64,000 nt of DNA from Oscillospiraceae bacterium (GCA_015067975.1 SVLK01000001.1:21513-85512), one strand, 5' to 3'. Shown: positions 22,905 to 59,467, numbered from the stretch's first letter. Notes: generated by a model from the letters alone, not told the origin. Numbers and translations are program-made.

Positions 22905-22923
22905 ATAAACAGTAATCACCGGG

Positions 22924-43398: not shown

Positions 43399-43425
43399 AC
43401 ATTTGACTGTCCCGTTTTTGCAGTG

Positions 43426-43463
43426 AAAAAGCAGCAGCGCCATAAAGCGCTGCTGCTTTTTTT
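43426..43463 (+). terminator. Intrinsic terminator after htrA
   Basis: AAAAAGCAGCAGCGC-CATAAA-GCGCTGCTGCTTTTTTT. Confidence 0.85.
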
Positions 43464-43707
43464 GTGAGGTGGGATTTGCAGATTTTAGTGTTTTTTATCC
43501 AAATACAGATGAAACATCAGCGGAGCAGCGCATTTGCATCAAAATGCAGGGATTTTTTTGTTAAAAAAAGACAGGAAAAAACATAAATAACAGAGGGAAG
43601 TTTTGGATAAAAAGGAAGTATTTGGTGAAAACATACAAAAATAAAGATTAAGTATTGTCATTACAAACAATATTTGAAAGAAGAAGAGTGGAATCTTGCG
43701 ATTGTTA

Positions 43708-43742
43708 TTGCAAATTTCTGCAAATGGCAATATAATTGCCAT
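43708..43742 (+). promoter_or_regulatory. Promoter of the GDPD/ABC operon with a palindrome over the -10
   Basis: TTGCAA 43708-43713, 17 bp, TATAAT 43731-43736; ATGGCAAT-ATA-ATTGCCAT 43724-43742. Confidence 0.65.
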
Positions 43743-43778
43743 GTTATAGAGGTGAGTCAGATGCTTTGGGAGGGTGCG

Positions 43779-45146
43779 ATGAAAAAAAGAGCGCTTTTGC
43801 TTTTGACGCTGGGTGTGTTGACGCTGGCCGTGTCGCTGCTGCTGAGCGGCTGCGGCGGCAAAGCCTCGCTGGAAGACTATACGATCGTCATTGCGGATGA
43901 GGCCGATGAGCGTACGTTCAATGCAGCACGCGAGGTGCAGACATACCTTAAGGAATTGGCAGGAAAAACACCTGCGATGACCGGCGATGCCAGTGCCGGA
44001 ACGGAGCAGGAGATCCTGATCGGTACGCTGAACCGTGCAGAACGGGACAAGGCTGTGGAAGGCGAGCTTGTGACCACCATGGACTATGTGATCAAGGTGG
44101 TGGACAAAAAGATCGTGATTGCAGGTGCCAGTACCTTTGCAACGGCAGCGGCTGCAGATAAGTTTTTGCAGCTGGCGCAGGCGGAGGAACTGCAGCTGAA
44201 GAACGGCTGGTCCTATACATATCATTTTGATCCCGCATGGATGAATCCTCTGTGCAACGATCCGGAATCCTTCGTGCCTGTGTGGGCGGATACTTTTACG
44301 CCGCCGGAGTGGATGCTGGACCCCTATGAGTCCATGTATGCGGTGACCCATGCAACGGACCGCATGGCCAGTCTGGCGCACAGAACAGACTTTGTGTACT
44401 ATCCGGAATGCTCGCTGGAGGGTATGCTCAGCTGCATTATGGCTGGTGTGGATGCCATCGAGTTGGACGTCCGCCTGACCAAAGACAACATTCCTGTGGT
44501 GCTGCATGATGAAAAGCTGAACCGCTTGACCGACTTCGGTTCCAAAGCGGGAAAGGACGGATTGCCTGCCTCGGAATATGTGGGCGACTGGACCTATGAG
44601 CAGCTGCGGGAACTGAATATGCTGATGAGCGACGGTTCTTTGACGGATTACAAGGTGCCTACACTCTATGAGTGCCTGTATCTAGCCGGCCAGTATGACA
44701 CCATGCTGACGCTGGATGAAAAGGCGGATGAAACCGCGACGCCTGTATTTGCTGCGACGGAAACCTCCTGTCTGTTGGATGATATGCAATCCATTGCCGT
44801 ACAGACCGATACGCTGGACAATCTGTTGTACTACTACAGATATTGGAAAAAAGTGGGCAGCAGAGACTACTTCATGAATGTGGAGGGTGGCAGTGATAAG
44901 TACTACGAAATGGTGGAGTTCTGGTTTGACTGCGAGGAAGACGGTGCCCTGAACAAGGTCTGGTCCTTCTGGGGCGACAGCCGGTACAAGAGCTGGGGCC
45001 AGGGCGGCGGTTATGAGAAAGACAGTTTCTGGAAAACGTGGTTTGACGAAGGCATCCGTACCATGTGGTCCAACAAGGCTGTGGACCATGCGATGTATAT
45101 TGCAGAAAACTACAGTCCGGCCGACTATTCGGCATTGAAGAAATAA
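43779..45146 (+). CDS. Surface lipoprotein: GH20/GH67-type N-terminal domain fused to a divergent glycerophosphodiester phosphodiesterase (GDPD) domain
   Basis: Lipobox LSGC; YTIVI..EILIG..NR..YVIK...KIVIAG domain; AHRT...PECSL...VDAIELDVRLTKD..PVVLHD..LNRLT..TYEQLREL..VPTL GDPD motifs; ATG 43779. Confidence 0.82.
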   Translation: MKKRALLLLTLGVLTLAVSLLLSGCGGKASLEDYTIVIADEADERTFNAAREVQTYLKELAGKTPAMTGDASAGTEQEILIGTLNRAERDKAVEGELVTTMDYVIKVVDKKIVIAGASTFATAAAADKFLQLAQAEELQLKNGWSYTYHFDPAWMNPLCNDPESFVPVWADTFTPPEWMLDPYESMYAVTHATDRMASLAHRTDFVYYPECSLEGMLSCIMAGVDAIELDVRLTKDNIPVVLHDEKLNRLTDFGSKAGKDGLPASEYVGDWTYEQLRELNMLMSDGSLTDYKVPTLYECLYLAGQYDTMLTLDEKADETATPVFAATETSCLLDDMQSIAVQTDTLDNLLYYYRYWKKVGSRDYFMNVEGGSDKYYEMVEFWFDCEEDGALNKVWSFWGDSRYKSWGQGGGYEKDSFWKTWFDEGIRTMWSNKAVDHAMYIAENYSPADYSALKK

Positions 45147-45184
45147 TTACCCAAAATGCGATTTTAGAAAAGGAGTGGGGTACA

Positions 45185-46081
45185 GTGAACGAACAGCAGA
45201 TGTTGCATCTGCAGGCAGTGAAGAAGAAGAAACGGCGCAAAAAGGTGCTGCCGTATCTGTTCATTCTTCCGACGGTCCTCATGTATTGCTCGTGGTGTTA
45301 TTTCCCTTTCATCAAGAGCATCGTTTTGTCCATGACGGTCAGTAATGCCCGAGGCGAAATTAAAAAGTGGGTTTGGTTTGATAACTTTATCCGCTTGTTC
45401 CAGGACGAAAAGACATGGAAGATTCTGGGAAATACCTTTAAATTTGCTCTGATGCTGGGCATTGGCACACTGATGGTGTCTATGATCCTCTCTCTGCTGT
45501 CGGTGGAGAAGGTGCGCTTCTGCCGTGTCTACCAGACCATGTATGCATTGCCCATGGCGGTGGCTTCCGTGGCAGCATCCGTGGCCTTCAAGCAGATCTA
45601 TAAGGCAGAGGGCCTGCTCAATGCCGTGATCGGCGGCGAGACCAACTGGCTGCTGCAGGAGAATACGGCCATCTGGGCCGTGGCCGTTGCCAGTATCTGG
45701 TGTGCGGTCGGTTCCAGCTTCCTGTTCTTGCTGGTGGGCTTCCGTAATGTGCCGCTGGATCTGCTGGAGAGCAGCAAGATGGACGGTGCCAACGGTCTGC
45801 AGCGGATCCTCAAGATCATGCTGCCCTGTGCCTCTCCCCAGATTTTCTTTGTTATTTTCCTGAATATCAACAGTTCCTTCAAATCGTTTGCCATGATCCG
45901 TCAGCTGACCGGCGGCGGACCCAACAACTCGACCATGGTGCTGACCTACGAGATCTACTCGCAGGCAATCCTGCACGGACGATTTGAAACAGCTTGTGCC
46001 GAGGCGATGATGCTCTGCCTGATCATTGTGATCTTCCAGCGCATTCAGTTCCGCCTGGAGAACAAGCTGGTGGTATATTAA
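45185..46081 (+). CDS. Carbohydrate ABC permease (UgpA-like)
   Basis: PYLFILP, WVWFDNF, NVPLDLLESSKMDGA EAA loop, LTGGGPNNST; GTG start 45185. Confidence 0.92.
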   Translation: MNEQQMLHLQAVKKKKRRKKVLPYLFILPTVLMYCSWCYFPFIKSIVLSMTVSNARGEIKKWVWFDNFIRLFQDEKTWKILGNTFKFALMLGIGTLMVSMILSLLSVEKVRFCRVYQTMYALPMAVASVAASVAFKQIYKAEGLLNAVIGGETNWLLQENTAIWAVAVASIWCAVGSSFLFLLVGFRNVPLDLLESSKMDGANGLQRILKIMLPCASPQIFFVIFLNINSSFKSFAMIRQLTGGGPNNSTMVLTYEIYSQAILHGRFETACAEAMMLCLIIVIFQRIQFRLENKLVVY

Positions 46082-46093
46082 GGGGGGGGAGCA

Positions 46094-46963
46094 ATGAGTA
46101 CGAGTAATTCTCTGCTGGCGTCTCCCAGCAAGCAGCACATGAAGCGCCGCGCCAAGGCGGTTCTCGCCTTCATTTTTAAGGTCGGTCTCGGTCTGGTGAT
46201 CCTGTTCCCCGTGTTCGTTATGGCATCCTGGAGCTTGCGCCCCGATGCTGAATTGGTGCAGTACGGTGCAACACTGTTTCCCAAGACGTGGACGCTGGAA
46301 TACTACAAGTGGGCTTTTGAAAATCTGAATTTGATTCGCTATATCATGAATAGCTTTATTCAGTTTTTCATCATCTTTGCGGGCCATGTGATCCTCTCCA
46401 GTCTGGCGGCCTATGCTTTCGTCTTCTTTAAGTTCAAGGGTGCTGCGCTGATCTTTACCATGATCCTGGTGGCACAGGTGATCCCCGGCGAGGTAACTGT
46501 CATCGCCAACTACATTACCATTCAGAAGCTGGGCCTGATCGACACCTTTGCCGGTTTGACGCTGCCCTCTCTGGTATCCGGTATGTCCATCTTCATGCTG
46601 CGCCAGTACTTCCTGACGATCCCCAAGGAACTGAAGGAGGCTTCGGAGCTGGACGGCTGCGGCGATGTTCGCTTCCTGCTGAAGATCCTGCTGCCGATCT
46701 CTGTTCCTACATACGCCTCTCTGGCCATTTATGACTTCATCGGCGTGTACAACTCCTGGTTCTGGCCTCTGCTGGTCACCAACTCCGATGATATGCGTAC
46801 GGTGCAGATCGGTCTGGCTCAGGCCATGGGCGGTCAGGTCTACGATGAGTACGGCCGTGTTCTGGCGGCAGCTACCGTGGCGGTTATTCCCACTATCGTG
46901 GTGTTCGTTATCGGTCAGGAATATCTGATCCGCGGCATGGTATCCGGCTCGGTCAAGGGCTGA
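46094..46963 (+). CDS. Carbohydrate ABC permease (UgpE-like)
   Basis: LAAYAF, FMLRQYFLTIPKELKEASELDG, WFWPLLVT, RTVQIGL, GSVKG. Confidence 0.93.
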   Translation: MSTSNSLLASPSKQHMKRRAKAVLAFIFKVGLGLVILFPVFVMASWSLRPDAELVQYGATLFPKTWTLEYYKWAFENLNLIRYIMNSFIQFFIIFAGHVILSSLAAYAFVFFKFKGAALIFTMILVAQVIPGEVTVIANYITIQKLGLIDTFAGLTLPSLVSGMSIFMLRQYFLTIPKELKEASELDGCGDVRFLLKILLPISVPTYASLAIYDFIGVYNSWFWPLLVTNSDDMRTVQIGLAQAMGGQVYDEYGRVLAAATVAVIPTIVVFVIGQEYLIRGMVSGSVKG

Positions 46964-47010
46964 TACAAAAAAGTTTCTTTTTTCACATTTAAAATAACAG
47001 GAGGAAGAAA

Positions 47011-48399
47011 ATGAAAAAGATGAAAAAAATGCTGGCTTTGATGCTGGCTATGCTGATGGCGCTGTCTCTGGTCGCCTGCGGCGACAAGGGCGGAAGCAGC
47101 AAGCCTGACAGCGGCAAGAGCGACGGCCCTGTGGAAGTGCTGGTCTGGTCTGCTTTCCAGGCTCCCATTGATGCAGAGCTGCAGGCTGCTGCCGATGCAT
47201 TCAACGCTTCTCAGGACAAGTATAAGGTCAAGATCCAGTTCCAGGGCCAGTTTACCGAAATTTTCACCAAGCTGACCACGACGCTGAACCAGAAGGACCT
47301 GCCCGAACTGACGGTGGTCAGCACGGAGCTGGCCGGCACCTATGCTATGGCCGAAGGATTGATCCGTCCCCTCAGCCACTACTGCAGTGCTGATGACGAA
47401 GTGTGGGCTAAGCTGAACGGTAACTTGAAGTATGTCTGGGGCAACGGCGATGGCGATCCCATCTACTATCCCTATGGTAACAGCCTGTACGGCAGCTTTG
47501 TCAACGCTGAGATCTTTGAGGCTGCCGGTATTGATCCCTACACCGCACTGACTTCTACCAAGGGCCTGTATGAGGCCTGTAAGAAGCTGGTGGACGGCGG
47601 CTACTGCAAGTACGGTATCGGCGTGGATAGCTGGGGCGGCTTTGTTTGGTATGCTCTGGCTGCTGCCGGTATTCAGGTCATGGATAACAACAATGGCCGT
47701 GACGGTATTCCCACCAAGATGCTGCTGGATACCCCCGAGGTCAGCGCTGCTCTGTACGACTATTTCTATTACTTCCGCAAGATGCAGCAGGAAGGCCTGA
47801 TGGTTCCCTACGGTTCTTCCTGGGGCGATGAGGTCCTGCCCGCATTTGCCAACGGCAGTTGCGCCGTTGCTACCGGGTCCATTGCCGCTTTTATCCGCGT
47901 GGAGACCGCTCTGGCCGCCGATCCCTTTGCGGTAGCTTATGTCCCCTGCTGGTCTGCCGTGGATCTGGGAAGCATCCCCGAAGGTTATTCCGCTTCCGGT
48001 ACCGGTCTGGGTATCGTGGAAAACGGTGACGAGGAAGCCATGGAAGGTGCATGGGAATTCATCAAGTTCACTAGCAATCCTGAGTTCCAGGAGTCCCTGT
48101 GCTTGGCCTCCGGCTATCTGCCCGTCACCAAGGAGGGTTATGAGTCTGCCGGTTATCAGGATTTCGTGACCAACCGTTTCCCCGCCGCTGCCAAGGCTTT
48201 CGAACTGCAGCAGAACGCCGCCATCGATGCCAAGCACATCAATCCTTTGAATCCTGTCAACAACGCTTGCCAGGATGCCACGCAGGAAGCTTGGTCCATG
48301 ATTATGACGGATCTTACCTGCGATATCAATGAGGTCATCGCTACTATGCAGAAGGACACCCAGATCGCTCTGGATCTGTGGCTGGATACCAACACCTAA
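47011..48399 (+). CDS. Family-1 extracellular solute-binding lipoprotein (UgpB-like)
   Basis: Lipobox LVAC, FNASQDKYKV..QFQG, NAEIFEAAGID, AWEFIKF, SGYLPV. Confidence 0.9.
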   Translation: MKKMKKMLALMLAMLMALSLVACGDKGGSSKPDSGKSDGPVEVLVWSAFQAPIDAELQAAADAFNASQDKYKVKIQFQGQFTEIFTKLTTTLNQKDLPELTVVSTELAGTYAMAEGLIRPLSHYCSADDEVWAKLNGNLKYVWGNGDGDPIYYPYGNSLYGSFVNAEIFEAAGIDPYTALTSTKGLYEACKKLVDGGYCKYGIGVDSWGGFVWYALAAAGIQVMDNNNGRDGIPTKMLLDTPEVSAALYDYFYYFRKMQQEGLMVPYGSSWGDEVLPAFANGSCAVATGSIAAFIRVETALAADPFAVAYVPCWSAVDLGSIPEGYSASGTGLGIVENGDEEAMEGAWEFIKFTSNPEFQESLCLASGYLPVTKEGYESAGYQDFVTNRFPAAAKAFELQQNAAIDAKHINPLNPVNNACQDATQEAWSMIMTDLTCDINEVIATMQKDTQIALDLWLDTNT

Positions 48400-48484
48400 T
48401 TAAAACAATAATCCGTGAGGTGCCTGTGCTTGTCACGGGCACCTCGTTCTTTTGAGTTTCTGAAATTGACAGGAGACAAACACC

Positions 48485-49564
48485 ATGAAAAATGTTATCA
48501 TCATTGACGGGGCGACGCCGCAGTGGAAAGGAAATCTGCACCTGCACACCAGCCGTTCCCATGACAGTAAATATCACTATCTGGACGTATTCGATGAGTT
48601 GAAGAGCAAGGGCTACCACTTCTGCGCCGTCACGGACCACGAGGTTTACTGGGATAGCGAGGAGGGGCATACCGACACCTTTATCACGCTGCCCGGCGTG
48701 GAGACGATTTTGAAGACCAATGTGGACCGCGAGTGGAATGTGGATCTGCGGCGCAAGTTTATCCACATCAATGCGATCAAGGATGTGACCCGGGAGTGCG
48801 ATAAGCCCTTCAAACACGATGAACGGATGCTGCGCTGCTACGATCAGGGTCTGGACTGCATGAACGAATATATCCGCTATCTGGTAGAAGAGCGCGGACA
48901 GATCGTGCAGATGAATCACCCGGATTGGTCCCACATGGAGCCGGAAGTGCTGATGGCAACGCACAACATTTTTGCTTTTGAGGTGTTTAACTCCGGCGCG
49001 ATGCGCTATGCCGGCGGACAAACGGATGACTGGCGTTGGGATTTTTGTCTGGAACGTGGACGCAAGTTGTTGGCTACGGCGGCGGATGACTCCCACACTT
49101 ACGGACCTGATCACATTGAGTGCGGAGCAGGCTTTACCATGGTGCACACGGAGGACTTCTCCCGGTACGGTATCGTCAAGGCACTGAAGGAAGGCAAATT
49201 CTATGCCTCCACCGGTCCGAAAATCTATGACATGCGTGTGGAAGACGGTATGCTGAAGATGCAGTTTTCCGATGCGCGGTTCGTGCAGATCGTCGGATTC
49301 GGCTATTCCAGTCACTTCAGTGGCAACCGGGGCAAGAGCTTTGGTGCCCTGCCCGGCCAGGTGCTCAATTCCATCGAGTGGAAAATTGGCGAAAAACTGA
49401 ACTATTTCCGCGTGCGTGTGGTGGATCATCAGGGTGAGGTGGCGTGGTCGCAGCCGGTGTTTGTGGACGAGCTGATCGAGCATCCGCCCATCGAGGGTCG
49501 CGAGACCCGCTCTCCCAGCTGGTCGTTCCCCCGTTATCTGGACGAGATTAAGGAGCAAAATTGA
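48485..49564 (+). CDS. PHP-domain metallo-phosphoesterase (CehA/McbA-like)
   Basis: WKGNLHLHT, AVTDHE, PGVE, HINA, NHPDWS, FEVFN, ADDSH, ALKEGKFYASTGP. Confidence 0.85.
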   Translation: MKNVIIIDGATPQWKGNLHLHTSRSHDSKYHYLDVFDELKSKGYHFCAVTDHEVYWDSEEGHTDTFITLPGVETILKTNVDREWNVDLRRKFIHINAIKDVTRECDKPFKHDERMLRCYDQGLDCMNEYIRYLVEERGQIVQMNHPDWSHMEPEVLMATHNIFAFEVFNSGAMRYAGGQTDDWRWDFCLERGRKLLATAADDSHTYGPDHIECGAGFTMVHTEDFSRYGIVKALKEGKFYASTGPKIYDMRVEDGMLKMQFSDARFVQIVGFGYSSHFSGNRGKSFGALPGQVLNSIEWKIGEKLNYFRVRVVDHQGEVAWSQPVFVDELIEHPPIEGRETRSPSWSFPRYLDEIKEQN

Positions 49565-50271
49565 AAAAGAAGAACGTTTTTTTCAAAAAAATTCAAGAAA
49601 CGGTAAAAAAATGGCATCCGGACTATGTGCCGGCACAGGATCTGACAGAACCGGTGCCGGAGGCAGGCTGGAAGCGCTACGTTTTTTTGCTGCGTAACCA
49701 CTTTGTCAAGTTGTTGTGCTGCAGCTCTGTATACCTGCTCACCTGTATTCCTGTGGTGACGATTCCGGCTGCTACGGCTGGATTGTGCCATGTGATGATG
49801 GAACTGGAACGCAAGGGTAATGTGGTCAGCTGGTGGAATGCCTATTTTGTCGGCTTCCGTGACCGCTTTTTTGACCGGCTACTGCTGGGTCTGGGAAGTG
49901 TTTCAATTCCTTGCTGCATGGCGATTTTGCTGCTGAGCCTGCAGGTCAAAGAAACGGTAGCTTTGTGCATTGCTTTTGGCATATATCTGCTATGCAATAG
50001 TGTGTGGCAGTACTTTCTTGTGCTGCAGGATGTGATGGACCTGAAGTTGGGGCAGAACCTGCGTAATGCGGTGCTTTTGGCGCTGACCAACCTGAAGACA
50101 ACACTGGTTCTGGTGGTCTGTGCGCTGGTCTTTACGGGAATCATTCTGTATTTGTTCCCCTACTGGGTGATCCCGTTTGCCTTTTTTGGCTTTGCCGCAA
50201 AGCAGCTGCTCTTCTGCAGTCTGATCTGGCCCATTGCAAAACAAAGGCTTGTGGTGGAAGAGAACGTATAA
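49561..50271 (+). CDS. YesL/DUF624-like integral membrane protein
   Basis: CIPVVTIPAATAGL, F..F, NAVLLA; several TMs; TTG start overlapping the PHP stop. Confidence 0.72.
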   Translation: MKKKNVFFKKIQETVKKWHPDYVPAQDLTEPVPEAGWKRYVFLLRNHFVKLLCCSSVYLLTCIPVVTIPAATAGLCHVMMELERKGNVVSWWNAYFVGFRDRFFDRLLLGLGSVSIPCCMAILLLSLQVKETVALCIAFGIYLLCNSVWQYFLVLQDVMDLKLGQNLRNAVLLALTNLKTTLVLVVCALVFTGIILYLFPYWVIPFAFFGFAAKQLLFCSLIWPIAKQRLVVEENV

Positions 50272-50320
50272 TTAAAAAAGCAGAAGTCACACATAAAGTG
50301 ACTTCTGCTTTTTTAATTAT
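50268..50320. terminator. Bidirectional terminator (23-bp stem)
   Basis: ATAATTAAAAAAGCAGAAGTCAC-ACATAAA-GTGACTTCTGCTTTTTTAATTAT. Confidence 0.85.
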
Positions 50321-50341
50321 GTGGGAATGTGTGGATGGCAC

Positions 50342-51151
50342 TCAGTCGTCCTGCACTTCATCGGCGGGGTCGTAAATCATGGGAGCAATAATAAGTTCGG
50401 AGCCGAGACTGCGCAGGAATTCTTCATCCTCGGAAGAGAGACGTTCATCAACAACAATGGTGTCTACCTGCGAAATGGGATATACGTTGGAGAAAGCGCG
50501 GGTATGGAGTTTTTCGCTGCTGATGACTAGCACCAATTTCTCAGCGTGGCTATGGATCAAGGAACGGGAAAGGCCGAGATCATCATAGTCGGTGATATAG
50601 CCCTGCTGTGTATCCAGACCAGCACAACTGATAAAGGCGATATCTACATTGAAAAGGCTCAAATTGGAACTGGTGATTTTCCCATAGTAGGTGTATTCTT
50701 CGTGGCTAAGAGAACCGCCCAAAGAATATAGATTGACTTCCGTATCACTGAGTTCGTTGATGACCAACAGGGACGGGGTGACAACAGACAGATCGTGGAT
50801 GTCACGGACGTAGTGGGCCAGATGAGCCATGGTGCGGCCGCCGTCCAGCAGAATAGTGCTGCCGGAACGTACCAACTTGGCAGCGGCTTGTGCGGCGGCC
50901 AGATTCCCAGCGTGGAACTGTCGGCGGAATTTGGGTGTTGCACCGTGAATGGGCGAAGTGTTATCATCCTGCGGGATCAGAACAGCGCCGCCATGTACGC
51001 GCTTGGCTAAGCCGTTTTCCTGTAAAGTTTCCAGATCGCGTCTGGCGGTTTCGTGGGAAACATTGCATAACTGCATGACTTCGGAAACCTTAATGGTGCT
51101 TTTTTCAAGCAATACGCGAGCGATCAGATCATAACGTTCCTGTGCTAACAA
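50342..51151 (-). CDS. DeoR/GlpR-family transcriptional regulator
   Basis: ER..LI, VSHETARRDL..L...G...RVHGGA HTH, ILLDGG.T, DIAFISCAG; TTG start 51151 after AAGGAGGG. Confidence 0.93.
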   Translation of the reverse strand: MLAQERYDLIARVLLEKSTIKVSEVMQLCNVSHETARRDLETLQENGLAKRVHGGAVLIPQDDNTSPIHGATPKFRRQFHAGNLAAAQAAAKLVRSGSTILLDGGRTMAHLAHYVRDIHDLSVVTPSLLVINELSDTEVNLYSLGGSLSHEEYTYYGKITSSNLSLFNVDIAFISCAGLDTQQGYITDYDDLGLSRSLIHSHAEKLVLVISSEKLHTRAFSNVYPISQVDTIVVDERLSSEDEEFLRSLGSELIIAPMIYDPADEVQDD

Positions 51152-51583
51152 AATGCTCCCTCCTTGTGCGCAACGGGTGCGATGCAATTCTTACTTTAAC
51201 AATATAACACAAAAAAGAAAAAGTAAAGAAGAAAATGGGGAATTTTAACAAAAAAGCAAACCATGAGAAGAAAGCCGTGAGCGTTTTTGGGTATATAGCG
51301 GTGCAAAAACAAGCGAAAAATAAGAGAGAAGGTATTTGCTGCGGAAATACGTGCGAGTCTTGGCGCGAAAATGGCGGAAAAGCAAAAAAGTGCAATAATT
51401 GAGTTGACCTTTTTTGCGTTTTCGTGTATCATGTGGTTGTGAAATAATGGAATTATCAACATGGGTACGTATCCGCATTACCTGCGGCAATGACCTGTGA
51501 GACTTTGTTCGGAAAATATTGTCACCGGAAGTGAAAGTAGCCAGTGCGGCCGATTGCTGTGCACGTAGAAGGTGGAGAGAACA

Positions 51584-53053
51584 ATGAGCGGAACAGTTAA
51601 CTACATTTTGTCTTATGACGCGGGAACCAGCGGCATCAAGGCGGTTCTTGTGGGCACAGACGGCAGCATTTGTGCTTCGGCAACAGTGGGATATTCGCTG
51701 CTGCGGCCGCAAGACGGGTGGGCAGAGCAGATCCCTGCGGAATACTGGGACGCGGCGTGCCGCTCGGCACATGCGGTATTGGCACAGGGAAATGTGGCGG
51801 CCGAGCAGGTAATCGGCGTGATTTTCGCTACGCAGTGGAAGGGTATGATTCCGCTGGATGCGGAGGGAAACGTACTGCACAATAGTATTATCTGGATGGA
51901 TACCCGCGGCACGGCGGAAGCTGTGGAACTGGCTGAAAAAACGGGAATGGCCTGTGTTGCTAGAGATTATTGGCCGAGGATCCTCTGGTTTAAGAAGAAC
52001 TGTCCCGAGCAGTACGCGAAGACAGTTTGCTTCCTGGAGGCGAACAGTTATCTGAAATATCGGGCGACCGGCAGCAGGACCATTGACCAGAGCAATCATT
52101 TTACCCGCTCGCCGCTGCCTAAGGTGCAGGCCTTGTTTGATGCCATGCTGGCAGGCGGCGAGATCGCACCGGAATTGTTTCCACCCGTGGTGCAGGCTAC
52201 CGATGAGGTGGGGAGGCTGACGGCTGCAGCGGCGCAGGAGCTGGGACTGAAGGAAGGCACCCCAGTGTTTGGCGGGTTGTGTGATATTCCGGCGGTGACG
52301 ATCGGTGCCGGGGCCTGCGCGGTGGGTGCAGCCCATGTATATCTGGGAACATCCGGCTGGATCGGTGTGACACGTGCGGTCGGAGACGGTGCACCGCGGA
52401 TTCCGGTGGTGTTGTCGCAGGATCGCTGGGCCCATGTGGCCGGTATGCAATCAGCGTGCATGAGCTATGACTGGTGTCTGCGCACCTTTTACAAAGAAGA
52501 AATGGCACGGCTGGGCGATGGGATCTACGGGATGGTGGAAGAAGAGCTTTCGCAGATCCCGGCTGGATCCCTTGGCTTGACGGCACTGCCTTCGCTGAAT
52601 GGAGAAGGTGGGCCCTTTGCGCCTGCCATGCGGGCCGGATTTGTAGGCCTAACGGCTGCGCATGACAGACGCCATATGGTTAACGCGGTGCTGGAAGGTA
52701 TTTGCTGCATTTTACGTCTGCGGAAAGAAGCCATCGAAAAGAGTGTGGGTAAGCCGATTACCTGTATTCGTGTGGTGGGAGGCGGTGCCGGAAGTCCGCA
52801 CTGGATGCAGATGCTGGCCGATGTGCTGCGTGTGGAAGTGATCGTGCCGGAAAATGCCCGCTATGCCGGCGCATTGGGTGCGGCCTACTGTGCCATGATC
52901 GGCTTAGGCTTGTGCGAAAATCTGGAAGAGTGCGCGGAGCGTGCACGGATCAAAGCAAGATATATACCGCGTGACGATGCTGCGGATGTGTATGACAGGC
53001 AGTGGCCTCGCTTCTGGAAAGCGGCGCAGCTGTTGGGAGATGTTGACGCGTAA
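51584..53053 (+). CDS. FGGY-family carbohydrate kinase (xylulokinase-like, divergent)
   Basis: YDAGTSGIKA, WAEQ.P, IIWMDTR, YLGTSGW, AVLEG, VGGGA.S..WMQMLADV. Confidence 0.9.
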   Translation: MSGTVNYILSYDAGTSGIKAVLVGTDGSICASATVGYSLLRPQDGWAEQIPAEYWDAACRSAHAVLAQGNVAAEQVIGVIFATQWKGMIPLDAEGNVLHNSIIWMDTRGTAEAVELAEKTGMACVARDYWPRILWFKKNCPEQYAKTVCFLEANSYLKYRATGSRTIDQSNHFTRSPLPKVQALFDAMLAGGEIAPELFPPVVQATDEVGRLTAAAAQELGLKEGTPVFGGLCDIPAVTIGAGACAVGAAHVYLGTSGWIGVTRAVGDGAPRIPVVLSQDRWAHVAGMQSACMSYDWCLRTFYKEEMARLGDGIYGMVEEELSQIPAGSLGLTALPSLNGEGGPFAPAMRAGFVGLTAAHDRRHMVNAVLEGICCILRLRKEAIEKSVGKPITCIRVVGGGAGSPHWMQMLADVLRVEVIVPENARYAGALGAAYCAMIGLGLCENLEECAERARIKARYIPRDDAADVYDRQWPRFWKAAQLLGDVDA

Positions 53054-53108
53054 ATAACCGGATCCGTATGGCCGGATGGCCGGGACGGGGAAATAATGGA
53101 GGAGAACC

Positions 53109-54584
53109 ATGAGAGTATTTGTGTGTGAGTTTTCGCAGGAGACGAATTCGTTTTGTCCTGTCATTTCTACTCGTGAAGATTTCGGCGAGTGGGATGGCGG
53201 AGGCACCAAGAAAGAAGTACATGGCTTTATCGATGTGATGCTGGAGAACGGCTTTGAAGTGATCCGTGGCCCCATGTACCGTGCACAGGCATCCGGTCCT
53301 GTGAAGCAGGAAGTGGTGGATCAGTTCCTTGAAGAATCCATCCAGCAGCTCAGAGAGATCGGCAAGGCGGACGCTGTTTGCGTAGAGCTGCACGGTTCTA
53401 CCCAGTCTACCGAGAGCGACAATGTGTGCGGTGATATCGTATCTGCGCTGCGTGAAGCGGCGGGCGGTGTGCCTGTGGCAGCCAGCTGCGATCTGCATGC
53501 CAACATCACAAAGAAGCTTTACGAGAACGCTGATTTCATCAGCTCCTATCAGACCTATCCCCACCGTGACGCTTACGAGACCGGTCGCCGCTCTGCAGAA
53601 CTGTGCGTGCGCAAGCTGAAGGGCGAAGCCGTCTTTTCCGCATGTGTCAAGGTGCCGATGATCGTTCCTGCCAGCGGTTACACCACCGAGGGCGGTGCTT
53701 TTGGCGAGGTGGTCAAAAAGGCCCGTGCACTGGTGGCAGAGGGCAAGATCTTTGATTACAGTCTTTGCGTTGTGCAGCCTTGGCTGGATGTGTACGAGTG
53801 CGACTCTGCCGTGCTGGTATATGCAGCAGATCAGGAAGTGGCCGTGCAGTGCGCACAGGAACTGGGACAGGGTATGGCCGCATGCTGCGATGACATGCAT
53901 CCGCAGGTATCCACGGTGGATGAGATCATCGAGCGTGCCCGTGCAAAGAAGGAAGACAAGCCGGTGATCGTGTCCGACTTCTCCGACTCCCCCAATGCCG
54001 GTGCTGCCGGTGACAATGTGGACATTCTGGCAGGCCTGTTGGAGCGCGGCAGCGATCTGAAGGGAGCCGTGATCGTCAATGATGTACTGGCTACCGATGC
54101 TGCCTTTGCCTGCGGCGTGGGCGGTACGGCGAAATTCCGCATCGGCGGTACGCTGGCACCCCATTATTCCAAGCCGGTAGAGGTGGAGGGAACGGTTCGC
54201 TCCCTGCACGACGGCAAGTATGTGCTGGGCGGCCCCATGATGCGCGGTGTGGAAGTGGATGTCGGCCGCGCTGCAGTGATCACTGTGGGCAAGGTGGATG
54301 TGCTCTTGTGCCATGCCATGTGCATCACCGGCGATATCCAGTTGTACCGTCATTTCGGCATTGAGCCTGCCTTCTATCAGGTGGTAGTAGTCAAGGCCAA
54401 TACATCTTTTAAGGCCGTATATTCTGTCGTTTCGGAAGATATCGTATCCTGTGATACGGGTTGTGCCTCTACGGCGGATCTGGCAAGCCTGCCTTGGAAG
54501 CATCTGCCGAAGGAGGGAATGTATCCCTTTATTTCCCTTACAAATTATTGCGCAAAAGACCATACGCTGCAGCGCAGCCTGTAA
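53109..54584 (+). CDS. M81-family (MlrC-like) metallo-amidohydrolase, paralog 2
   Basis: QETNSF, LHGS, ASCDLHANI, YQTYPHRD, QPWLDV, SDSPNAGAAGD, GIEP. Confidence 0.9.
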   Translation: MRVFVCEFSQETNSFCPVISTREDFGEWDGGGTKKEVHGFIDVMLENGFEVIRGPMYRAQASGPVKQEVVDQFLEESIQQLREIGKADAVCVELHGSTQSTESDNVCGDIVSALREAAGGVPVAASCDLHANITKKLYENADFISSYQTYPHRDAYETGRRSAELCVRKLKGEAVFSACVKVPMIVPASGYTTEGGAFGEVVKKARALVAEGKIFDYSLCVVQPWLDVYECDSAVLVYAADQEVAVQCAQELGQGMAACCDDMHPQVSTVDEIIERARAKKEDKPVIVSDFSDSPNAGAAGDNVDILAGLLERGSDLKGAVIVNDVLATDAAFACGVGGTAKFRIGGTLAPHYSKPVEVEGTVRSLHDGKYVLGGPMMRGVEVDVGRAAVITVGKVDVLLCHAMCITGDIQLYRHFGIEPAFYQVVVVKANTSFKAVYSVVSEDIVSCDTGCASTADLASLPWKHLPKEGMYPFISLTNYCAKDHTLQRSL

Positions 54585-54800
54585 TATACAAAAAAGCATC
54601 GATACAGCAATAGACTGAGGGCGACCGTAATACATGCCGCGCAGCAGCATAGCACCTATGAAAGATGCGTGACATACCTGCCGCGGCGGCAAAATGAAAT
54701 TGAGCAGCCCCAGTCTGCGCTGAATGTGCAGTCTGGGGCTGTTATTGTTGCAACACAACTGCAGACCGGCCGGAATGGAGCCGGAGAAAAGGAGAAAGAA

Positions 54801-55850
54801 ATGAACTATTTACAGTGGCTGACCCAAAATACCCCTACCCGGTTCTGGCATGATTCGGCGATTCCTTCCGAAATCGATGCCGCCATCGAGAATGGCGCCA
54901 TGGGCGTGACCACCAACCCCGTACTGACCTATAAGACGCTGCAGGCCGTGCCGGAGTTCTGGCAGCCTCAGGTGGATAAGATCGACAAGGACCTGACTCC
55001 TGCAGAGCACGCTGAGGCACTGCTGCAGATGGTGGCTACCTATGCCGCCGATAAGTTCCGCCCCGTGTTTGAAAAGACCAACGGCCAGCACGGTTACGCA
55101 CTGGGCCAGCTGGATCCCTCCATCTGCATGGACAGTGAGAAGATGTTGGCACAGGGTCTGCGCTATGCTTCCTGGGCAGACAATATCTCCGTGAAGACTC
55201 CATCCATCATGTCGGCACTGCCGCTGGTGGAAGAGCTGGCTTCCCGCGGTATCGCCGTGTGCACCACGCTGAACTTCTCTGTGTCTCAGGCGATGGCGGT
55301 GTGCGAGGCCTACATGCGCGGCCGCGCCAAGGCGGAGGCAGCCGGTATCCAGCCCAAGCCCATTTTCGTGGTGCAGCAGGGCGGCCGTCTGGACGAGTAT
55401 TTGCTGGAGTGCGCTACCGACAACCGCATTGATATCGATCCCGAGATCATCCGCAATGCAGGCAACGCGGTGTGCAAGAAGGTGTACAGCCTGCTGAAGG
55501 AGCGGAACATTCCTGCGGTGGTGATGCCTGCGGGCCTTCGCGGCGTACATCACCTGACCTCTATGGCCGGTGCCGATATGACGTTCTCTCTGCAGGCCCG
55601 TATCCAGCAGATGACCATCGAGGCAGATCCGGAGCGCGTGTGCCACATTGATGACGAAATCCCCGCCGAGGTGATCCGGAAGCTGTACAAGCTGCCGGAG
55701 TTCGTGCGTGCCTATGAAGAGGGCGCACTGAAGCCGGAGGAGTTCATCACCTTCGGTGTGACGCAGAAGACCATGTCCCAGTTCCTGTGGACCGGCTGGG
55801 TCCCGCTGGAGACGTACCAGAAGGCACCTGCCGGTGCCCGCTGGTTCTAA
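54801..55850 (+). CDS. Transaldolase-family protein with non-canonical active site
   Basis: FWHDS, GVTTNP, Schiff-base VKTP, TLNFSVSQ, GRLD; ATG 54801 with AAGGAG RBS. Confidence 0.85.
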   Translation: MNYLQWLTQNTPTRFWHDSAIPSEIDAAIENGAMGVTTNPVLTYKTLQAVPEFWQPQVDKIDKDLTPAEHAEALLQMVATYAADKFRPVFEKTNGQHGYALGQLDPSICMDSEKMLAQGLRYASWADNISVKTPSIMSALPLVEELASRGIAVCTTLNFSVSQAMAVCEAYMRGRAKAEAAGIQPKPIFVVQQGGRLDEYLLECATDNRIDIDPEIIRNAGNAVCKKVYSLLKERNIPAVVMPAGLRGVHHLTSMAGADMTFSLQARIQQMTIEADPERVCHIDDEIPAEVIRKLYKLPEFVRAYEEGALKPEEFITFGVTQKTMSQFLWTGWVPLETYQKAPAGARWF

Positions 55851-55869
55851 GAATGGGGAGGAAATAGAC

Positions 55870-56607
55870 ATGTTGAAGGGTAAACAGGCTTTGATCACCG
55901 GCGGTGCCGGTGAAATGGCATCCACTATCGCGGCAACGTTGGCAAAGCAAGGTGCAGCCATTATTTTGGTGGATCTGAACGCAGAGGCACTGGAGACGGT
56001 GAAAGCGGATCTGGTAGAGCGCTTTGGCGTACCGGTGCATACCTATGTACACAATTTGTGCGATTTTGACGGTCTGGCAGAGATGGTAGACACCATGGAG
56101 CGTGAATGCGGTGCCATTGATATTCTGGTGAATGTGGCCGGTATTACTAATACCATCACTTACCGTGATATTACGCCGGCCGATTGGGACAAAATGATGA
56201 GCATTAATCTGAAGGCACCTTTCTTCCTGACTCGGGAACTGTTCTTCCGTATGGAAGAGCGCGGTTTCGGTCGTATCGTAACACTGGGTTCCATTTCCGG
56301 TGAGCGCGGCGCCAAGTATGCAGGCCCCCACTACTCCATTTCCAAAGCGGGCCTGATCTGCTTTACCAAGGTGCTGGCCAAGCTGGCCGGTGACAGTGGA
56401 GTGACGGCCAATACGGTGTCTCCTGGCATCATTGCTTCCCGTATGACCGATAGTCTGGGCTCTCAGGTGTATTCTTACGATGTGCCCATGAACCGCATGG
56501 GTACACCGCAGGAAGTAGCGGATGCAGTACTGTATCTGGTATCTCCGCTGGCCAACTATGTAACGGGACAGAATCTGAGTGTCAACGGCGGCCAGTCCAT
56601 GCGCTAA
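55870..56607 (+). CDS. Short-chain dehydrogenase/reductase (classical SDR)
   Basis: TGGAGEMA, DILVNVAG, S...YSISK, NTVSPG, PMNRMGTPQEVA, VTGQ...VNGG. Confidence 0.92.
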   Translation: MLKGKQALITGGAGEMASTIAATLAKQGAAIILVDLNAEALETVKADLVERFGVPVHTYVHNLCDFDGLAEMVDTMERECGAIDILVNVAGITNTITYRDITPADWDKMMSINLKAPFFLTRELFFRMEERGFGRIVTLGSISGERGAKYAGPHYSISKAGLICFTKVLAKLAGDSGVTANTVSPGIIASRMTDSLGSQVYSYDVPMNRMGTPQEVADAVLYLVSPLANYVTGQNLSVNGGQSMR

Positions 56608-56619
56608 GACGAAGAAATA

Positions 56620-57650
56620 ATGAAAGGCGTTGTTAAATACGAATTGGGGATGCACGGTGTGGAGCTTCGTGAACTGCCGGAGCCTGCCCCGAAAGAAGGC
56701 GAATGCAAAGTCAAGGTGCTGGCGGCGGGCATCTGCGGCAGCGATATCCATGCGCTGAAGGATGAGCGTTCCGTCACGATGCCTGTGGTGCTGGGTCACG
56801 AGTATGTGGGACAAATCGTAGAAACCTGTGGTGATATTGGCGATCTGCAGGTAGGCGACTGGGTCACCACGCTGCCGGCCTGCTATAGCTGCGGTACATG
56901 TGAACTTTGTCGCGCCGGTGTGGTGACACTATGCCGGCAGCGCAAGTCTATCGGCTCCCACAGAGACGGTGCGATGGCAGATTATGTGGTGGTGCCGGCG
57001 GTGTATACCTATCGCATTCCCAAAGCAGCCGACACGACCGAAAAAAAGATTGCTTATGCGTTGGCGGAGCCGTTGGCCTGCGTGGTGCGAGGCGTCTATG
57101 AGCGCATTGACGTCAAGCCGGGCGATACGGTAGTGGTCAGTGGCCCTGGTGTGATGGGCCAGATGGCAGCACAGGTGTTCAAGTCCCGTGGCGCCTATGT
57201 AATCTTGTCCGGTCTGCTGGAAGATCGTAAGAAACTGGAACTGGCCAAAGAATTGGACGCGGCCGATGCAACGGTGTGCAGTACGGAAGAACTGCGCCAA
57301 GCCGTGTATAGCCGCAATCCCCTTGGGGCAGATATTACTTGCGATTGCACCGGAGTGGTGCATTCCCTGGAAACCTGCGTGGACGTGATCCGCCCTATGG
57401 GAACGCACTTGCAGCTGGGGATGTTCGGCGGCAAAGTGCCCGTCCGGATGGACAGCTTTTTTGACAAGGAAGTGACCTATGTACCCAGCAACTCCAGCAG
57501 CGTAACGGCGTGGAAGACCACCATGGGCTGCTGGAGGGCGGTATTTCGCTGGAACCGTTCGTTTCCATGCAGTTGCCGCTGCAGGAGTGGAGAACGGCAT
57601 TTGACGCCGTGATTGACAAAAGGGTGTACAAAGCAGTGCTGTTGCCGTAA
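56620..57650 (+). pseudogene. Zn-dependent polyol/sugar dehydrogenase (MDR) with an apparent 1-nt frameshift near 57525-57527
   Basis: GICGSD, GHE, C-C-C-C structural Zn site, EPLAC, GPGVMG; the normal MDR C-terminus LLEGGISLEPFVS...AFDAVIDKRVYKAVLLP* lies in the -1 frame and ends at TAA 57648-57650. Confidence 0.8.
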
Positions 57651-57685
57651 GATGGATGTATCGTTGAAAAAGAGGGAAAACGACG

Positions 57686-58054
57686 ATGGAAATTATTGAG
57701 AGAAGGTCTGTGCCTGAGCAGATGCTGCCCGGCCGTTTTATGCAGAAGTTGGTGGGGAAGAAGGAGGATGGTTATCTCTCCGATAGCCGCATCCTGAACA
57801 TCGGCTACTGCCGCTACTGCGCGGAGGCAGGTCCCATGGAGCCTCACATGCACGCCGAGGAGACGGTGCAGGTCCTTGCCAGTGACCGCGCCTGGGTGCG
57901 TTTCGGCCCTGACAAGGATGACCTGCCCCACAAGGTGATGCTGCAACCCAACATGACGCTGCACATTCCTGCCGGTGAATGGCATGTGTTTGAGTACGCG
58001 GAGGGTGGTTCGCTGGAGATTCTCTTCATCTACGGCGCACAGGTACAGTTGTAA
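57686..58054 (+). CDS. Cupin-domain protein
   Basis: PHMHAEE and HIPAGEWHVF metal-binding cupin motifs. Confidence 0.85.
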   Translation: MEIIERRSVPEQMLPGRFMQKLVGKKEDGYLSDSRILNIGYCRYCAEAGPMEPHMHAEETVQVLASDRAWVRFGPDKDDLPHKVMLQPNMTLHIPAGEWHVFEYAEGGSLEILFIYGAQVQL

Positions 58055-58092
58055 GGGTCAAAGTGCTTCCCGGGAAGCAAAAGGAGAATGGA

Positions 58093-59412
58093 ATGAAAGA
58101 AAAAATCATCGTCCTGTCCATGGATGCCATGGTAGGCGAAGACATTGAATACTTAAAAACAAAACCCAACTTTGCACGACTTTTTGAAAAACGTGTGCAG
58201 GTGGGGAAGATGTGTACGGTCTATCCCAGCATCACTTATCCCGCCCATGTCAGCATGATGACCGGCTGCCGTCCGGGAAAGCACGGTATCATCACCAACG
58301 GAAAGTTCAAGACCACACTGGGCAAAGTGGACTGGCATCTGTACAACCATGAGCTGCTGGTAGAGGACGTTTTTGCGGCGGCCAAGCGCGCCGGTTGCAC
58401 CACAGCTTCCGTGTACTGGCCTGTGACGGGCTGCAATCCCAATGTGGACTATCTGATCAATGAGTTTTTCTTCTACGACAACGAGCCGATCGAGGAGACG
58501 TTTGCCGCCATGGGTACCAATGAGGCAACCATGGAGATCGTGCGGGAGAACATGGGTCGCTGGCCCACGGAGCCCGGCGGCAGCGGAAACAGACTGTATC
58601 TGCACAACTCCTTCGACTCCTTCATTGTCGGCTGTATGTGCAGCCTGATCCGCAAACATCAGCCCGATCTGCTGCTGGCCCACAACTGTTGGTTCGACGC
58701 CCTGCGCCACCGCAACGGTGTGTTCGGTGAACTGGTGCACGAGGGGCTGGATCAGATGGATCTGTGGCTGGGTGAACTGATCGAAGCACTGGAAGATGCC
58801 GGGATCTATGAGCAGACCAACTTTTTGCTGGTCAGTGACCATGGTCAGCGGGATTTTGTCCGCCGCATCAAGGTCAACACGCTGCTGCGCCGCGGCGGCT
58901 TTGTGGATGCCAACCAGGACGAGGTGCTGGATTGGCGAGCCTACGGACAGTCCAACGGTATGTCGGCCACCATTTTCCTGAAGGATCCCGATGACAAGGA
59001 ACTGTGGCAGCAAGTATATGACTACCTGCAGGGGCTGGCTGCCGACGGTGTCTGGGGGTTCAACAAGGTATATACCGAGGCTGAAGCACGGGAGCGCTAC
59101 GGCATGTACGGCGATTTTGCCTTTATGCTGGAGTCTGACGGCTACACCTCTTTTGCCGAGTCGTGGAGAGAGCCGGTGATCCATCCGGTGGATCTGACGG
59201 ACTACCGTTTGGGTAAGGCGACCCACGGCTACGAGCCGGAGAAGGGTGCCCAGCCTGTGTTTGTGGCCCGCGGACCTGCGTTCCGCGACGGCGCCTATAT
59301 CGAAAACGCACGGGTGATCGATGAAGCGCCCACTGTTGCCAGAATTCTGGGACAGACCATGCCGCAGGCAGAAGGCCGTGTGCTGGAAGAGCTGCTGGCA
59401 GAAGGCCGATAA
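58093..59412 (+). CDS. Alkaline-phosphatase superfamily nucleotide pyrophosphatase/phosphodiesterase (NPP type), cytoplasmic
   Basis: VLSMDA, YPSITYPAH (Thr nucleophile), DALRH, VSDHG, ATHGY; no signal peptide; ATG 58093. Confidence 0.92.
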   Translation: MKEKIIVLSMDAMVGEDIEYLKTKPNFARLFEKRVQVGKMCTVYPSITYPAHVSMMTGCRPGKHGIITNGKFKTTLGKVDWHLYNHELLVEDVFAAAKRAGCTTASVYWPVTGCNPNVDYLINEFFFYDNEPIEETFAAMGTNEATMEIVRENMGRWPTEPGGSGNRLYLHNSFDSFIVGCMCSLIRKHQPDLLLAHNCWFDALRHRNGVFGELVHEGLDQMDLWLGELIEALEDAGIYEQTNFLLVSDHGQRDFVRRIKVNTLLRRGGFVDANQDEVLDWRAYGQSNGMSATIFLKDPDDKELWQQVYDYLQGLAADGVWGFNKVYTEAEARERYGMYGDFAFMLESDGYTSFAESWREPVIHPVDLTDYRLGKATHGYEPEKGAQPVFVARGPAFRDGAYIENARVIDEAPTVARILGQTMPQAEGRVLEELLAEGR

Positions 59413-59418
59413 AAAGTC

Positions 59419-59459
59419 AAAAAAAGAAAGGGTTCGCACTGCGAACCCTTTCTTTTTTT
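59419..59459. terminator. Bidirectional terminator
   Basis: AAAAAAGAAAGGGTTCGC-ACT-GCGAACCCTTTCTTTTTT. Confidence 0.85.
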
Positions 59460-59467
59460 GTATCGAT

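Follow-up and report, generated by a model that had tools for sequence, protein, structure and literature searches.

A modular candidate island for phosphoester catabolism with an M81 metallohydrolase in an Oscillospiraceae genome

A stretch of 64,000 nucleotides from an Oscillospiraceae bacterium (GCA_015067975.1, SVLK01000001.1:21513-85512; analysed as a whole and referred to as the window) carries at positions 43708-59459 a locus of 14 genes, in which two units on the + strand, operon A (43779-50271) and operon B (51584-59412), flank a divergent gene for a DeoR-type regulator. With moderate confidence this locus is interpreted as one functional, modular and accessory catabolic island under the DeoR-type regulator, which would serve the use of an imported organophosphate ester, likeliest a phosphodiester, that joins a glycerol or polyol unit to a second moiety bearing an amide- or ester-linked (amino)acyl group. 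Teichoic-acid-like polymer fragments and phospholipid head groups are the leading candidates for the substrate.

A core consisting of a UgpB-like importer, a PHP-fold phosphoesterase, an M81 metallohydrolase, an FGGY kinase and a DeoR-type regulator recurs in at least five architectures, in other bacteria of gut and rumen; the M81 proteins of the more distant loci are 44-48% identical to that of the window. Judged by gene content, the recurring unit is the importer, the PHP-like or another phosphoesterase, M81, FGGY and DeoR, with a pair of transaldolase-fold enzyme (TAL) and Zn-dehydrogenase as frequent partner, and the GDPD, NPP, short-chain dehydrogenase/reductase (SDR) and cupin genes are lineage-specific. 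A preliminary description of this DNA had regarded an M81 enzyme inside a sugar operon as especially unexpected; the combination of M81, phosphoesterases and FGGY kinase recurs across loci, so that it is a theme and not an accident.

Recurrence of the core and ties between the operons

Type I loci (L029, L013, L035, L036, L046), the proteins of which are labelled Spirochaetales by their source (metagenome-assembled genomes, MAGs), run from the binding protein through FGGY kinase, M81, a CbiR-like AP_endonuc_2 protein and DeoR to an MBL-fold protein, and further along hold TAL, Zn-dehydrogenase and E1 genes. Type II loci (L031/L037, L038, L039, L041) comprise DeoR, permeases, binding protein, PHP-like protein, FGGY, M81 and MBL, and end with a second DeoR gene and a trio resembling glycerol 3-phosphate (G3P) dehydrogenase (DAO/BFD, PNDR, DUF1667). 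The order in Type III loci (L030, L048, L040) is binding protein, MBL, PHP-like, His_Phos_1 and M81. L030, L031, L040, L041 and L048 encode an orthologue of the PHP-like protein, either next to M81 or in the interval from the binding protein to FGGY/M81; in other architectures this position is taken by other phosphoesterases (MBL, CbiR-like AP_endonuc_2 or His_Phos_1). G3P-dehydrogenase-like genes follow M81 in L031 and L047, and their presence in two architectures (Type II and L047) points to a glycerol unit in the substrate. In the M81 tree, the importer- and esterase-linked copies formed two strongly supported clades apart from the Opp- and Liv-linked paralogues of the window genome.

In L029 (M81 48% identical), a binding protein with 62% identity to that of the window is encoded directly upstream of FGGY-M81, which ties operon A to operon B; the window genome's own binding-protein paralogues are only 33-35% identical to the locus protein. 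Three NPP paralogues in the same genome (64% and 45% identity to the locus NPP) each lie beside a UgpB-like importer and a DeoR gene, and this constant company ties the NPP of operon B to the importer of operon A. Together with the interleaving of PHP-like orthologues with FGGY/M81 in other loci and the recurring FGGY-M81 adjacency, which includes a paralogous pair in the window genome, these arrangements speak against a reading that we consider rather unlikely, namely that two independent systems are neighbours here, operon A for Ugp/GlpQ-like scavenging of glycerophosphodiesters and operon B for a free pentitol or ketose, with M81 and NPP as passengers. What such a reading has on its side is that each operon possesses its own promoter and terminator, that the kinase is nearest to XylB and the binding protein nearest to UgpB, and that each operon is met without the other. 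L018, an Oscillospiraceae MAG with an M81 of 84% identity, contains DeoR-FGGY-M81-TAL-SDR-SDR-Zn-dehydrogenase, followed by a glyoxalase-family gene, an acetoin-dehydrogenase-like E1/E2/E3 set and an Fe-type alcohol dehydrogenase, and has neither operon A nor NPP within 10 kb. L050, which was reached by a search begun from the binding protein (63-65% orthologue), contains a permease-permease-binding protein-PHP-like-DUF624-DeoR unit with a different, Type III-like module across the regulator, and no FGGY or TAL gene in the 10 kb read beyond. These arrangements indicate that the modules of operons A and B can work apart.

A compound of the aminopropanol-phosphate or nucleotide-loop kind, as handled in cobamide remodelling or salvage, or another nucleotide-like phosphodiester, is a very improbable substrate. 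What raises this possibility is that accessory genes of related loci have cobamide enzymes as their best, if weak, NCBIfam matches (CbiR phosphodiesterase, 51 bits; alpha-ribazole phosphatase, 84 bits), and that the Zn-dehydrogenase has L-threonine 3-dehydrogenase as its nearest model. However, all these matches lie far under the curated cut-offs, the importer is of the CUT1 sugar/G3P type and not BtuFCD-like, and kinase and transaldolase would be without a role in such a route.

Proteins of the two operons and the proposed route

The 14 genes of the locus are the following:

43779-45146, + strand: GDPD-family phosphodiesterase (Pfam GDPD), surface lipoprotein with an extra N-terminal domain of ~170 amino acids
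45185-46081, + strand: CUT1-type ABC permease, UgpA-like (BPD_transp_1), GTG start with ribosome-binding site
46094-46963, + strand: CUT1-type ABC permease, UgpE-like (BPD_transp_1), with orthologues in the L026/L027 and L050 locus comparisons
47011-48399, + strand: lipoprotein solute-binding protein, distantly UgpB-like (SBP_bac_8, 112 bits; lipobox LVAC)
48485-49564, + strand: two-domain PHP-fold metal-dependent phosphoesterase, cytoplasmic (from ligand residues and model fold)
49561-50271, + strand: DUF624/MusI-like (YesL-like) membrane protein, accessory to CUT1 importers (Pfam DUF624)
50342-51151, - strand: DeoR-family regulator, divergent from operon B (HTH_DeoR and DeoRC)
51584-53053, + strand: FGGY kinase, xylulokinase-like but not equivalog (FGGY_N and FGGY_C; PDB matches are xylulokinases)
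53109-54584, + strand: M81 (MlrC-like) metallohydrolase, cytoplasmic (DUF1485, 229 bits; MlrC_C, 151 bits)
54801-55850, + strand: Q-type transaldolase/FSA-fold enzyme (TAL), 349 amino acids (TAL_FSA, 95 bits)
55834-56607, + strand: SDR (Pfam SDR), start codon uncertain
56620-57647, + strand: Zn-dependent medium-chain dehydrogenase, frameshifted (ADH_N and ADH_zinc_N); the open reading frame (ORF) as read stops at 57612
57686-58054, + strand: small cupin, 122 amino acids, without Pfam match (cupin motifs; nearest Atlas clusters are cupins, 0.97-0.98)
58093-59412, + strand: NPP-type phosphodiesterase of the alkaline-phosphatase superfamily, cytoplasmic (Phosphodiest, 149.4 bits versus 23)

The preliminary description had named the same 14 genes in two operons parted by a DeoR regulator, and all of them were recovered with the domains it had assigned (ORF listing, Pfam and NCBIfam scans). 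Its operon A set (GDPD lipoprotein, UgpA/E/B-like importer, PHP esterase and YesL) was borne out by domain, lipobox and fold checks, and its operon B set (FGGY, M81, transaldolase-fold enzyme, SDR, Zn-dehydrogenase, cupin and NPP) by Pfam and motif checks. Based on ribosome-binding sites and homologue lengths, the starts of six genes were revised (GDPD to 43779, the first permease to 45185, DeoR to 51151 on the - strand, FGGY to 51584, TAL to 54801 and NPP to 58093), and the revised lengths agree with those of the homologues. No enzyme of the locus attains an NCBIfam equivalog cut-off, and all are divergent members of their families.

The alignment of the GDPD protein to PF03009 (77.1 bits versus a gathering score of 23.6) is limited to profile positions 1-92 of 244. 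Its translation contains the lipobox LLSGC and the motifs AHR, IELDV and LHDE, which in the GDPD family represent the catalytic His-Arg, the Glu-x-Asp metal site and the second His, respectively. It remains below the equivalog cut-offs of GlpQ and UgpQ (40.5 bits versus 254 and 34.7 versus 264), matches the AvrBs2 model weakly (E = 0.0013), and an Atlas look-up of its N-terminal domain gave no usable lead (score 0.75). The UgpA-like permease is 88-91% identical in L026/L027 and 65% in L050. The binding protein has G3P-binding proteins as best PDB matches (64-81 bits) and misses the UgpB equivalog (80 bits versus a cut-off of 411). Pfam scans detected no ABC ATPase gene in the locus; two TOBE_2-type ATPase candidates are encoded elsewhere in the genome. 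The DUF624 protein matches the NCBIfam MusI family below cut-off, and a DUF624 gene is also present in the paralogous locus L020.

The PHP-like protein scores under the Pfam PHP gathering threshold (20.2 bits versus 26.4) and a PDB sequence search with it gave nothing, the fold being obtained by modelling: the AlphaFold model has a pLDDT of 90.6, and its best Foldseek PDB matches are the PHP phosphoesterases 3e38, RNase AM and TM0559. The residues H19, H21, D27, H52, E73, H94, H145, D202 and H204 are invariant in 60 homologues of a family that comprises 1210 representative clusters at E<=1e-10, and no signal peptide is present. Homologues in L030, L031, L040 and L041 are 41-46% identical to the window protein. 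In L050, the PHP-like protein (8792-9871) is 92% identical to that of the window, whereas the adjacent binding protein and permeases reach only 65-69%, a difference that suggests recombination or module exchange within these loci.

The DeoR protein resembles AgaR, GlpR and SrlR, each below the NCBIfam cut-off, and has orthologues of 42-63% identity in L018, L029, L030 and L050. The FGGY kinase obtained 267.8 bits with the XylB model (cut-off 380.25) and 125 bits with that of glycerol kinase (590). M81 aligns with PDB 3iuu and 7ylq (microcystinase C), and its H95, D128, H130, H152 and an N-terminal Glu are invariant, the His/Asp/His/His positions fitting the Zn site described for MlrC (PMC12474180). 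It misses the microcystinase equivalog (128.9 bits versus 999) and has no mlrA, mlrB or mlrD-like neighbours. The NPP protein lacks a signal peptide, its PDB matches are NPP and ENPP, and the Thr nucleophile motif (PSITYPAH) and the metal-ligand motifs (SDHG, THGY) of the NPP family could be read. The cupin is 92-93% identical in L026 and L028.

In E. coli FSA, Gln59 occupies the position of TalB Glu96, and Tyr131 corresponds to TalB Phe178. The TAL of the locus is like FSA in having Gln (Gln103) in place of the catalytic Glu at the TalB Glu96 position, a residue that all of 24 homologues possess, a 40%-identical paralogue among them, and in keeping the Schiff-base Lys (Lys132, invariant), the TTNP motif and the Asp. 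Unlike in FSA and TalB, the residue at the FSA Tyr131/TalB Phe178 position appears to be Gln, as aligned across a gapped stretch. It is below all TAL and FSA equivalog cut-offs (FSA model 32.8 bits versus 246), a PDB sequence search returned canonical transaldolases only, at low scores, and it is the sole PF00923 gene in the genome. As a side observation, a Zn-dehydrogenase with 65-71% identity to that of the window repeatedly comes after the Q-type TAL (L016, 8963-12110; L013-L015; L029, 10296-12408). L016 also has an aldehyde dehydrogenase and, in tandem, a second TAL (40% identical), and the TAL-Zn-dehydrogenase pair of L029 and L013 is preceded by a sigma-54 activator. A glycyl radical enzyme (GRE) cluster beside a TAL homologue in L011 was considered as a sulfonate route and rejected, as its reductase has P5C-reductase domains and the cluster fits a hydroxyproline dehydratase cluster.

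The folds, active-site residues, predicted localisation signals and co-occurrences found here can be joined into a route for which we infer the substrates and the order of steps. The surface GDPD lipoprotein would trim an extracellular polymer or conjugate, after which the UgpB-like lipoprotein, the two permeases, the DUF624 protein and an ATPase encoded elsewhere would import a fragment still bearing its phosphoester, as the importer family and the cytoplasmic esterases suggest. In the cytoplasm, NPP would cut the diester, the PHP enzyme would take off the phosphate, and M81, the metal site of which is intact, would remove an amide- or ester-linked group. The freed polyol would then be oxidised by the SDR and the Zn-dehydrogenase, the polyol or its ketose would be phosphorylated by the FGGY kinase, and the Q-type TAL would link the carbon to glycolysis, be it through aldolase activity of the FSA kind or as a transaldolase on an unphosphorylated ketose. 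A pentitol or ketose is suggested by the kinase, with its likeness to xylulokinases, and by the two dehydrogenases of polyol type.

Distribution, gene integrity and expression signals

The full gene order is kept in three metagenome contigs (L026, L027, L028; M81 85-90% identical), which are close kin, L026 having also the downstream GDSL lipase. The conservation of the cassette, proposed earlier as a check, thus has a divided outcome: the 14-gene set is syntenic in close kin only (L026-L028), and the core recurs in at least five architectures. Close M81 relatives were obtained once in the genome-contig scan and 15 times in the metagenome scan, mostly on short contigs. Searches of 24 congeners and of 400 family genomes, which span 134 genera, gave no M81 orthologue, and none of TAL was found in 40 relatives (24 congeners and 16 genomes of the same order), which indicates that the locus is an accessory island. 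A role of TAL as housekeeping transaldolase was rejected because these congeners and same-order genomes gave no orthologue, although it is the only PF00923 gene of the window genome. The public runs with the locus, among which no RNA data set was listed, are animal gut and faecal metagenomes from ~15 studies, and an accessory trait of this distribution could mark a niche-defining nutrient.

The Zn-dehydrogenase gene carries a deletion of one nucleotide at 57526/57527, where an A present in L026 and L028 is missing according to protein and DNA alignments and a frame check. The deletion replaces the last ~35 conserved residues, which can be read in another frame to 57647. The missing A is carried by contigs of two public runs from slightly different strains and is also lacking in contigs from another two runs, which match the window in all else (depth ~4); the frameshift is consequently either peculiar to the strain or an artefact that stems from low coverage of the source. 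The chance that the pathway is decaying in the window strain, with operon B left non-functional or rewired, appears small. Loss of the conserved C-terminus and the shared absence of the base in the two identical runs, set against its retention in the two slightly different strains, speak for such decay; yet the other 13 genes are full length relative to L026, the two base-lacking runs, at only ~4 depth, may be the window's own source, and a Zn-dehydrogenase paralogue of 58% identity is encoded elsewhere in the genome.

The following expression signals were located:

~43428-43462: terminator upstream of operon A (hairpin and T-run, read from sequence)
43708-43736, + strand: promoter-like site of operon A (TTGCAA-17-TATAAT, 10/12 matches; block kept in L026)
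48415-48447, + strand: hairpin 3' of the binding-protein gene and 5' of the PHP-like gene (14 pairs, 8 of them G-C)
50277-50316: terminator between operon A and the convergent deoR (bidirectional hairpin and T-run, read from sequence)
51404-51432, + strand: promoter-like site of operon B (TTGACC-17-TATCAT; kept in L026, L027 and L018)
59418-59460: terminator closing operon B (hairpin, 20 pairs)

The two promoter-like sites are the best sigma-70-like sites of the locus, and both are kept in relatives. In a search for a shared DeoR operator, TTTTGTTAAA and TTATTGCA were found at both promoters; the former has two exact copies in the 64 kb, both in the two promoter regions and none elsewhere. These words are a weak hint at a common DeoR operator for operons A and B. 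The hairpin at 48415-48447 is a possible attenuator inside operon A, which would give an excess of binding-protein transcript. A promoter-like TTGACA site follows it at 48466. The gap between M81 and TAL (54585-54800), with 217 nt, is unusually long for operon B, and in L026 a 37-codon ORF was called within the corresponding gap. An Rfam scan of 43000-60000 detected no riboswitch and gave two sub-threshold chance matches only, both on terminator hairpins; the M81-TAL gap had no Rfam match.

Several of these results weigh against a single island of the proposed kind. Besides the separate occurrence of the operon modules in L018 and L050, the 14-gene cassette as such is conserved in close kin only, the Zn-dehydrogenase is broken in the window strain, and the candidate operator is poorly conserved upstream of GDPD in L026. 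TAL homologues that reach 70-90% identity are met in unrelated surroundings, such as next to gap-pgk or to a HypD-like cluster, and the FGGY kinase, being nearer to xylulokinases than to glycerol kinase, fits a pentitol better than glycerol. M81 is known as a peptidase only (PMC12474180), and substrate, transcripts and enzyme activities are all predicted from the genes. The earlier interpretation, which assigned both operons to one phosphodiester pathway, therefore stands in part: operons A and B are functionally tied, and phosphoester handling, M81 and the sugar-type kinase belong together, as indicated by L029 and the PHP-like and NPP links, but conservation does not extend to the full cassette, modules can be exchanged for one another and the window strain has one broken gene. 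The order of steps that it put forward (clipping, import, dephosphorylation, de-N-acylation, oxidation, rephosphorylation and cleavage), the N-acyl nature of the M81 substrate and the identity of the polyol are putative.

Beyond the island itself, a broader and more tentative proposal is that a modular pathway family is common to anaerobes of the gut and rumen from at least two phyla and dismantles an abundant, unrecognised phosphodiester nutrient bearing amide or aminoacyl groups. In this family, for which we see a somewhat lesser chance of being correct than for the island, a CUT1 importer, interchangeable phosphoesterases (PHP, MBL, CbiR-like, NPP, GDPD), an M81 amidohydrolase/esterase acting as a non-peptidase and an FGGY kinase would be combined, and a new Q-type TAL would feed glycolysis. 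Aminoacylated glycerophosphoglycerol and teichoic-acid units are candidate nutrients.

Relation to known systems and paralogous loci

The preliminary description knew of no characterised pathway with this gene set, and in the literature searched there was likewise no matching pathway, no paper that connects M81 with the catabolism of sugars or phosphodiesters, and no published inositol/TAL route that dispenses with a kinase. In its presumed working the locus resembles Ugp/GlpQ, acc and XanT/XanP, which pair an importer with a diesterase for a phosphodiester nutrient, and it is a member of none of them. The Ugp/GlpQ system of E. coli (UgpBAEC, UgpQ, GlpQ) is a Pho-regulated glycerophosphodiester system. 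Like it, the locus has a CUT1-family binding protein with two permeases, a GDPD-fold diesterase outside the cytoplasm and glycerol phosphate as a likely product; unlike it, the locus is without an ATPase gene, has a DeoR-type and not a Pho regulator, lies far below the UgpB and GlpQ/UgpQ cut-offs, and adds PHP, NPP, M81, FGGY, TAL and dehydrogenases. The acc operon of Agrobacterium (AccR, AccA-E, AccF, AccG) serves agrocinopine catabolism with a cytoplasmic diesterase and a binding protein of the peptide/opine family. Compared by gene kind and not by Acc sequence, a DeoR-type repressor, an ABC importer, a GDPD-type diesterase and a phosphatase are all present in the locus as well. Its GDPD, in contrast, is a surface lipoprotein, its cytoplasmic diesterase is of the NPP type, its binding protein belongs to another family, and it has M81, kinase and transaldolase, none of which occurs in acc.

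XanT-XanP of Xanthomonas takes up and hydrolyses xanthosan, a sugar phosphodiester made by the bacterium's own effector (PMC12807533). It shares with the locus the combination of a dedicated importer and a phosphodiesterase for a sugar phosphodiester used as food, but is a two-component system with another transporter type and a substrate that stems from the organism's own effector. On the sequence level, the comparison with it covered the weak AvrBs2-model match of the GDPD protein. Microcystinase MlrC is the only characterised M81 enzyme (PMC12474180; PDB 7ylq); the locus M81 belongs to the same two-domain fold family, has the same Zn-site residues and is cytoplasmic, but unlike MlrC it has phosphoesterases, a sugar kinase and an importer of the sugar/G3P type as neighbours. 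In the sulfofructose transaldolase pathway SftI/T/R/X of Eubacterium rectale and Bacillus, a transaldolase-fold enzyme shares its catabolic operon with a reductase and a cupin; its substrate is an unphosphorylated ketose, from which it sets free an aldehyde that is then reduced (PMC11968277). By analogy, this route is a possible model for the recurrent TAL-Zn-dehydrogenase pair; unlike it, the locus lacks an isomerase, a sulfoquinovosidase and an exporter, and its TAL is a Q-type protein of 349 amino acids.

As M81 is a large family with one characterised member, the substrates of importer-linked copies would provide its first non-peptide role. They could also show which phosphate-linked fragments of cell envelopes or lipid head groups feed gut Clostridia and spirochaetes. 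The Q-type TAL, 70-97% identical across contexts and altered in its catalytic dyad, may represent an aldolase or transaldolase reaction of a new kind.

The genome of the window encodes five M81 paralogues including the locus copy, of which two follow Opp-type importers and one follows a Liv-type importer with an FGGY kinase directly next to it. A further copy on contig C31 has no importer or esterase among the neighbours scanned, and an FGGY paralogue lies ~7 kb away. Within the window (17457-25056), one paralogue at ~23491-25056 (43-45% identical) is preceded by a five-gene ABC importer of the Opp/Dpp peptide type, and another Opp-M81 unit is located just upstream of the window (L023). The M81-FGGY pair after the Liv-type importer belongs to L021 (C38:156000-174000), which contains LysR, an SDR, a family III CoA-transferase, a thiolase, the Liv-type ABC importer and M81-FGGY-LarA-like racemase-malic enzyme; the surroundings of this second M81-FGGY pair are hydroxy-acid-like.

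Two of the NPP paralogues are found in smaller and larger importer cassettes. L020 (C43:3000-14557) is minimal, with DeoR divergent from permease-permease-binding protein-NPP (45%)-DUF624. L019 (C7:66000-84000) contains two long MBL-fold proteins, a CUT1 importer with a UgpB-like binding protein and a third MBL, and further a GlpK-like kinase (446 bits), an ornithine-cyclodeaminase/mu-crystallin protein, NPP (64%), DeoR and an octopine-dehydrogenase-like gene. From these genes, L019 looks like a route for an opine-type (secondary-amine) glycerophosphodiester, one candidate substrate being the head group of the N-(1-carboxyethyl)ethanolamine phospholipids of rumen protozoa.

These paralogous loci bear on an improbable reading of the window locus, by which the substrate would be an amino acid or peptide joined to a sugar or polyol in a glycated or opine-like conjugate (of the Amadori or mannopine type). 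M81 would trim the amino-acid part, the kinase and dehydrogenases would take the sugar part, and the phosphoesterases would act on kinase products or be secondary. CUT1 importers for Amadori compounds exist, for example frlONM of B. subtilis, M81 is a peptidase family, the octopine-dehydrogenase-like and ornithine-cyclodeaminase-like genes of L019 stand by a UgpB-like importer, kinase and NPP, and the M81-FGGY pair of L021 follows an amino-acid-type importer. However, genes for a deglycase, SIS or amadoriase are missing from the window locus, phosphoesterases of three to four folds return alongside the core in all architectures, and G3P-dehydrogenase genes accompany it in two. A last observation concerns the acetoin-dehydrogenase-like genes, of which a cluster E1alpha-E1beta-E2-E3 (L051/L023, C38:4230-9522) with 78-96% identity to the set directly downstream of operon B in L018 is located ~65 kb off on the same contig, by His_Phos_1, DeoR and the Opp-M81 unit.

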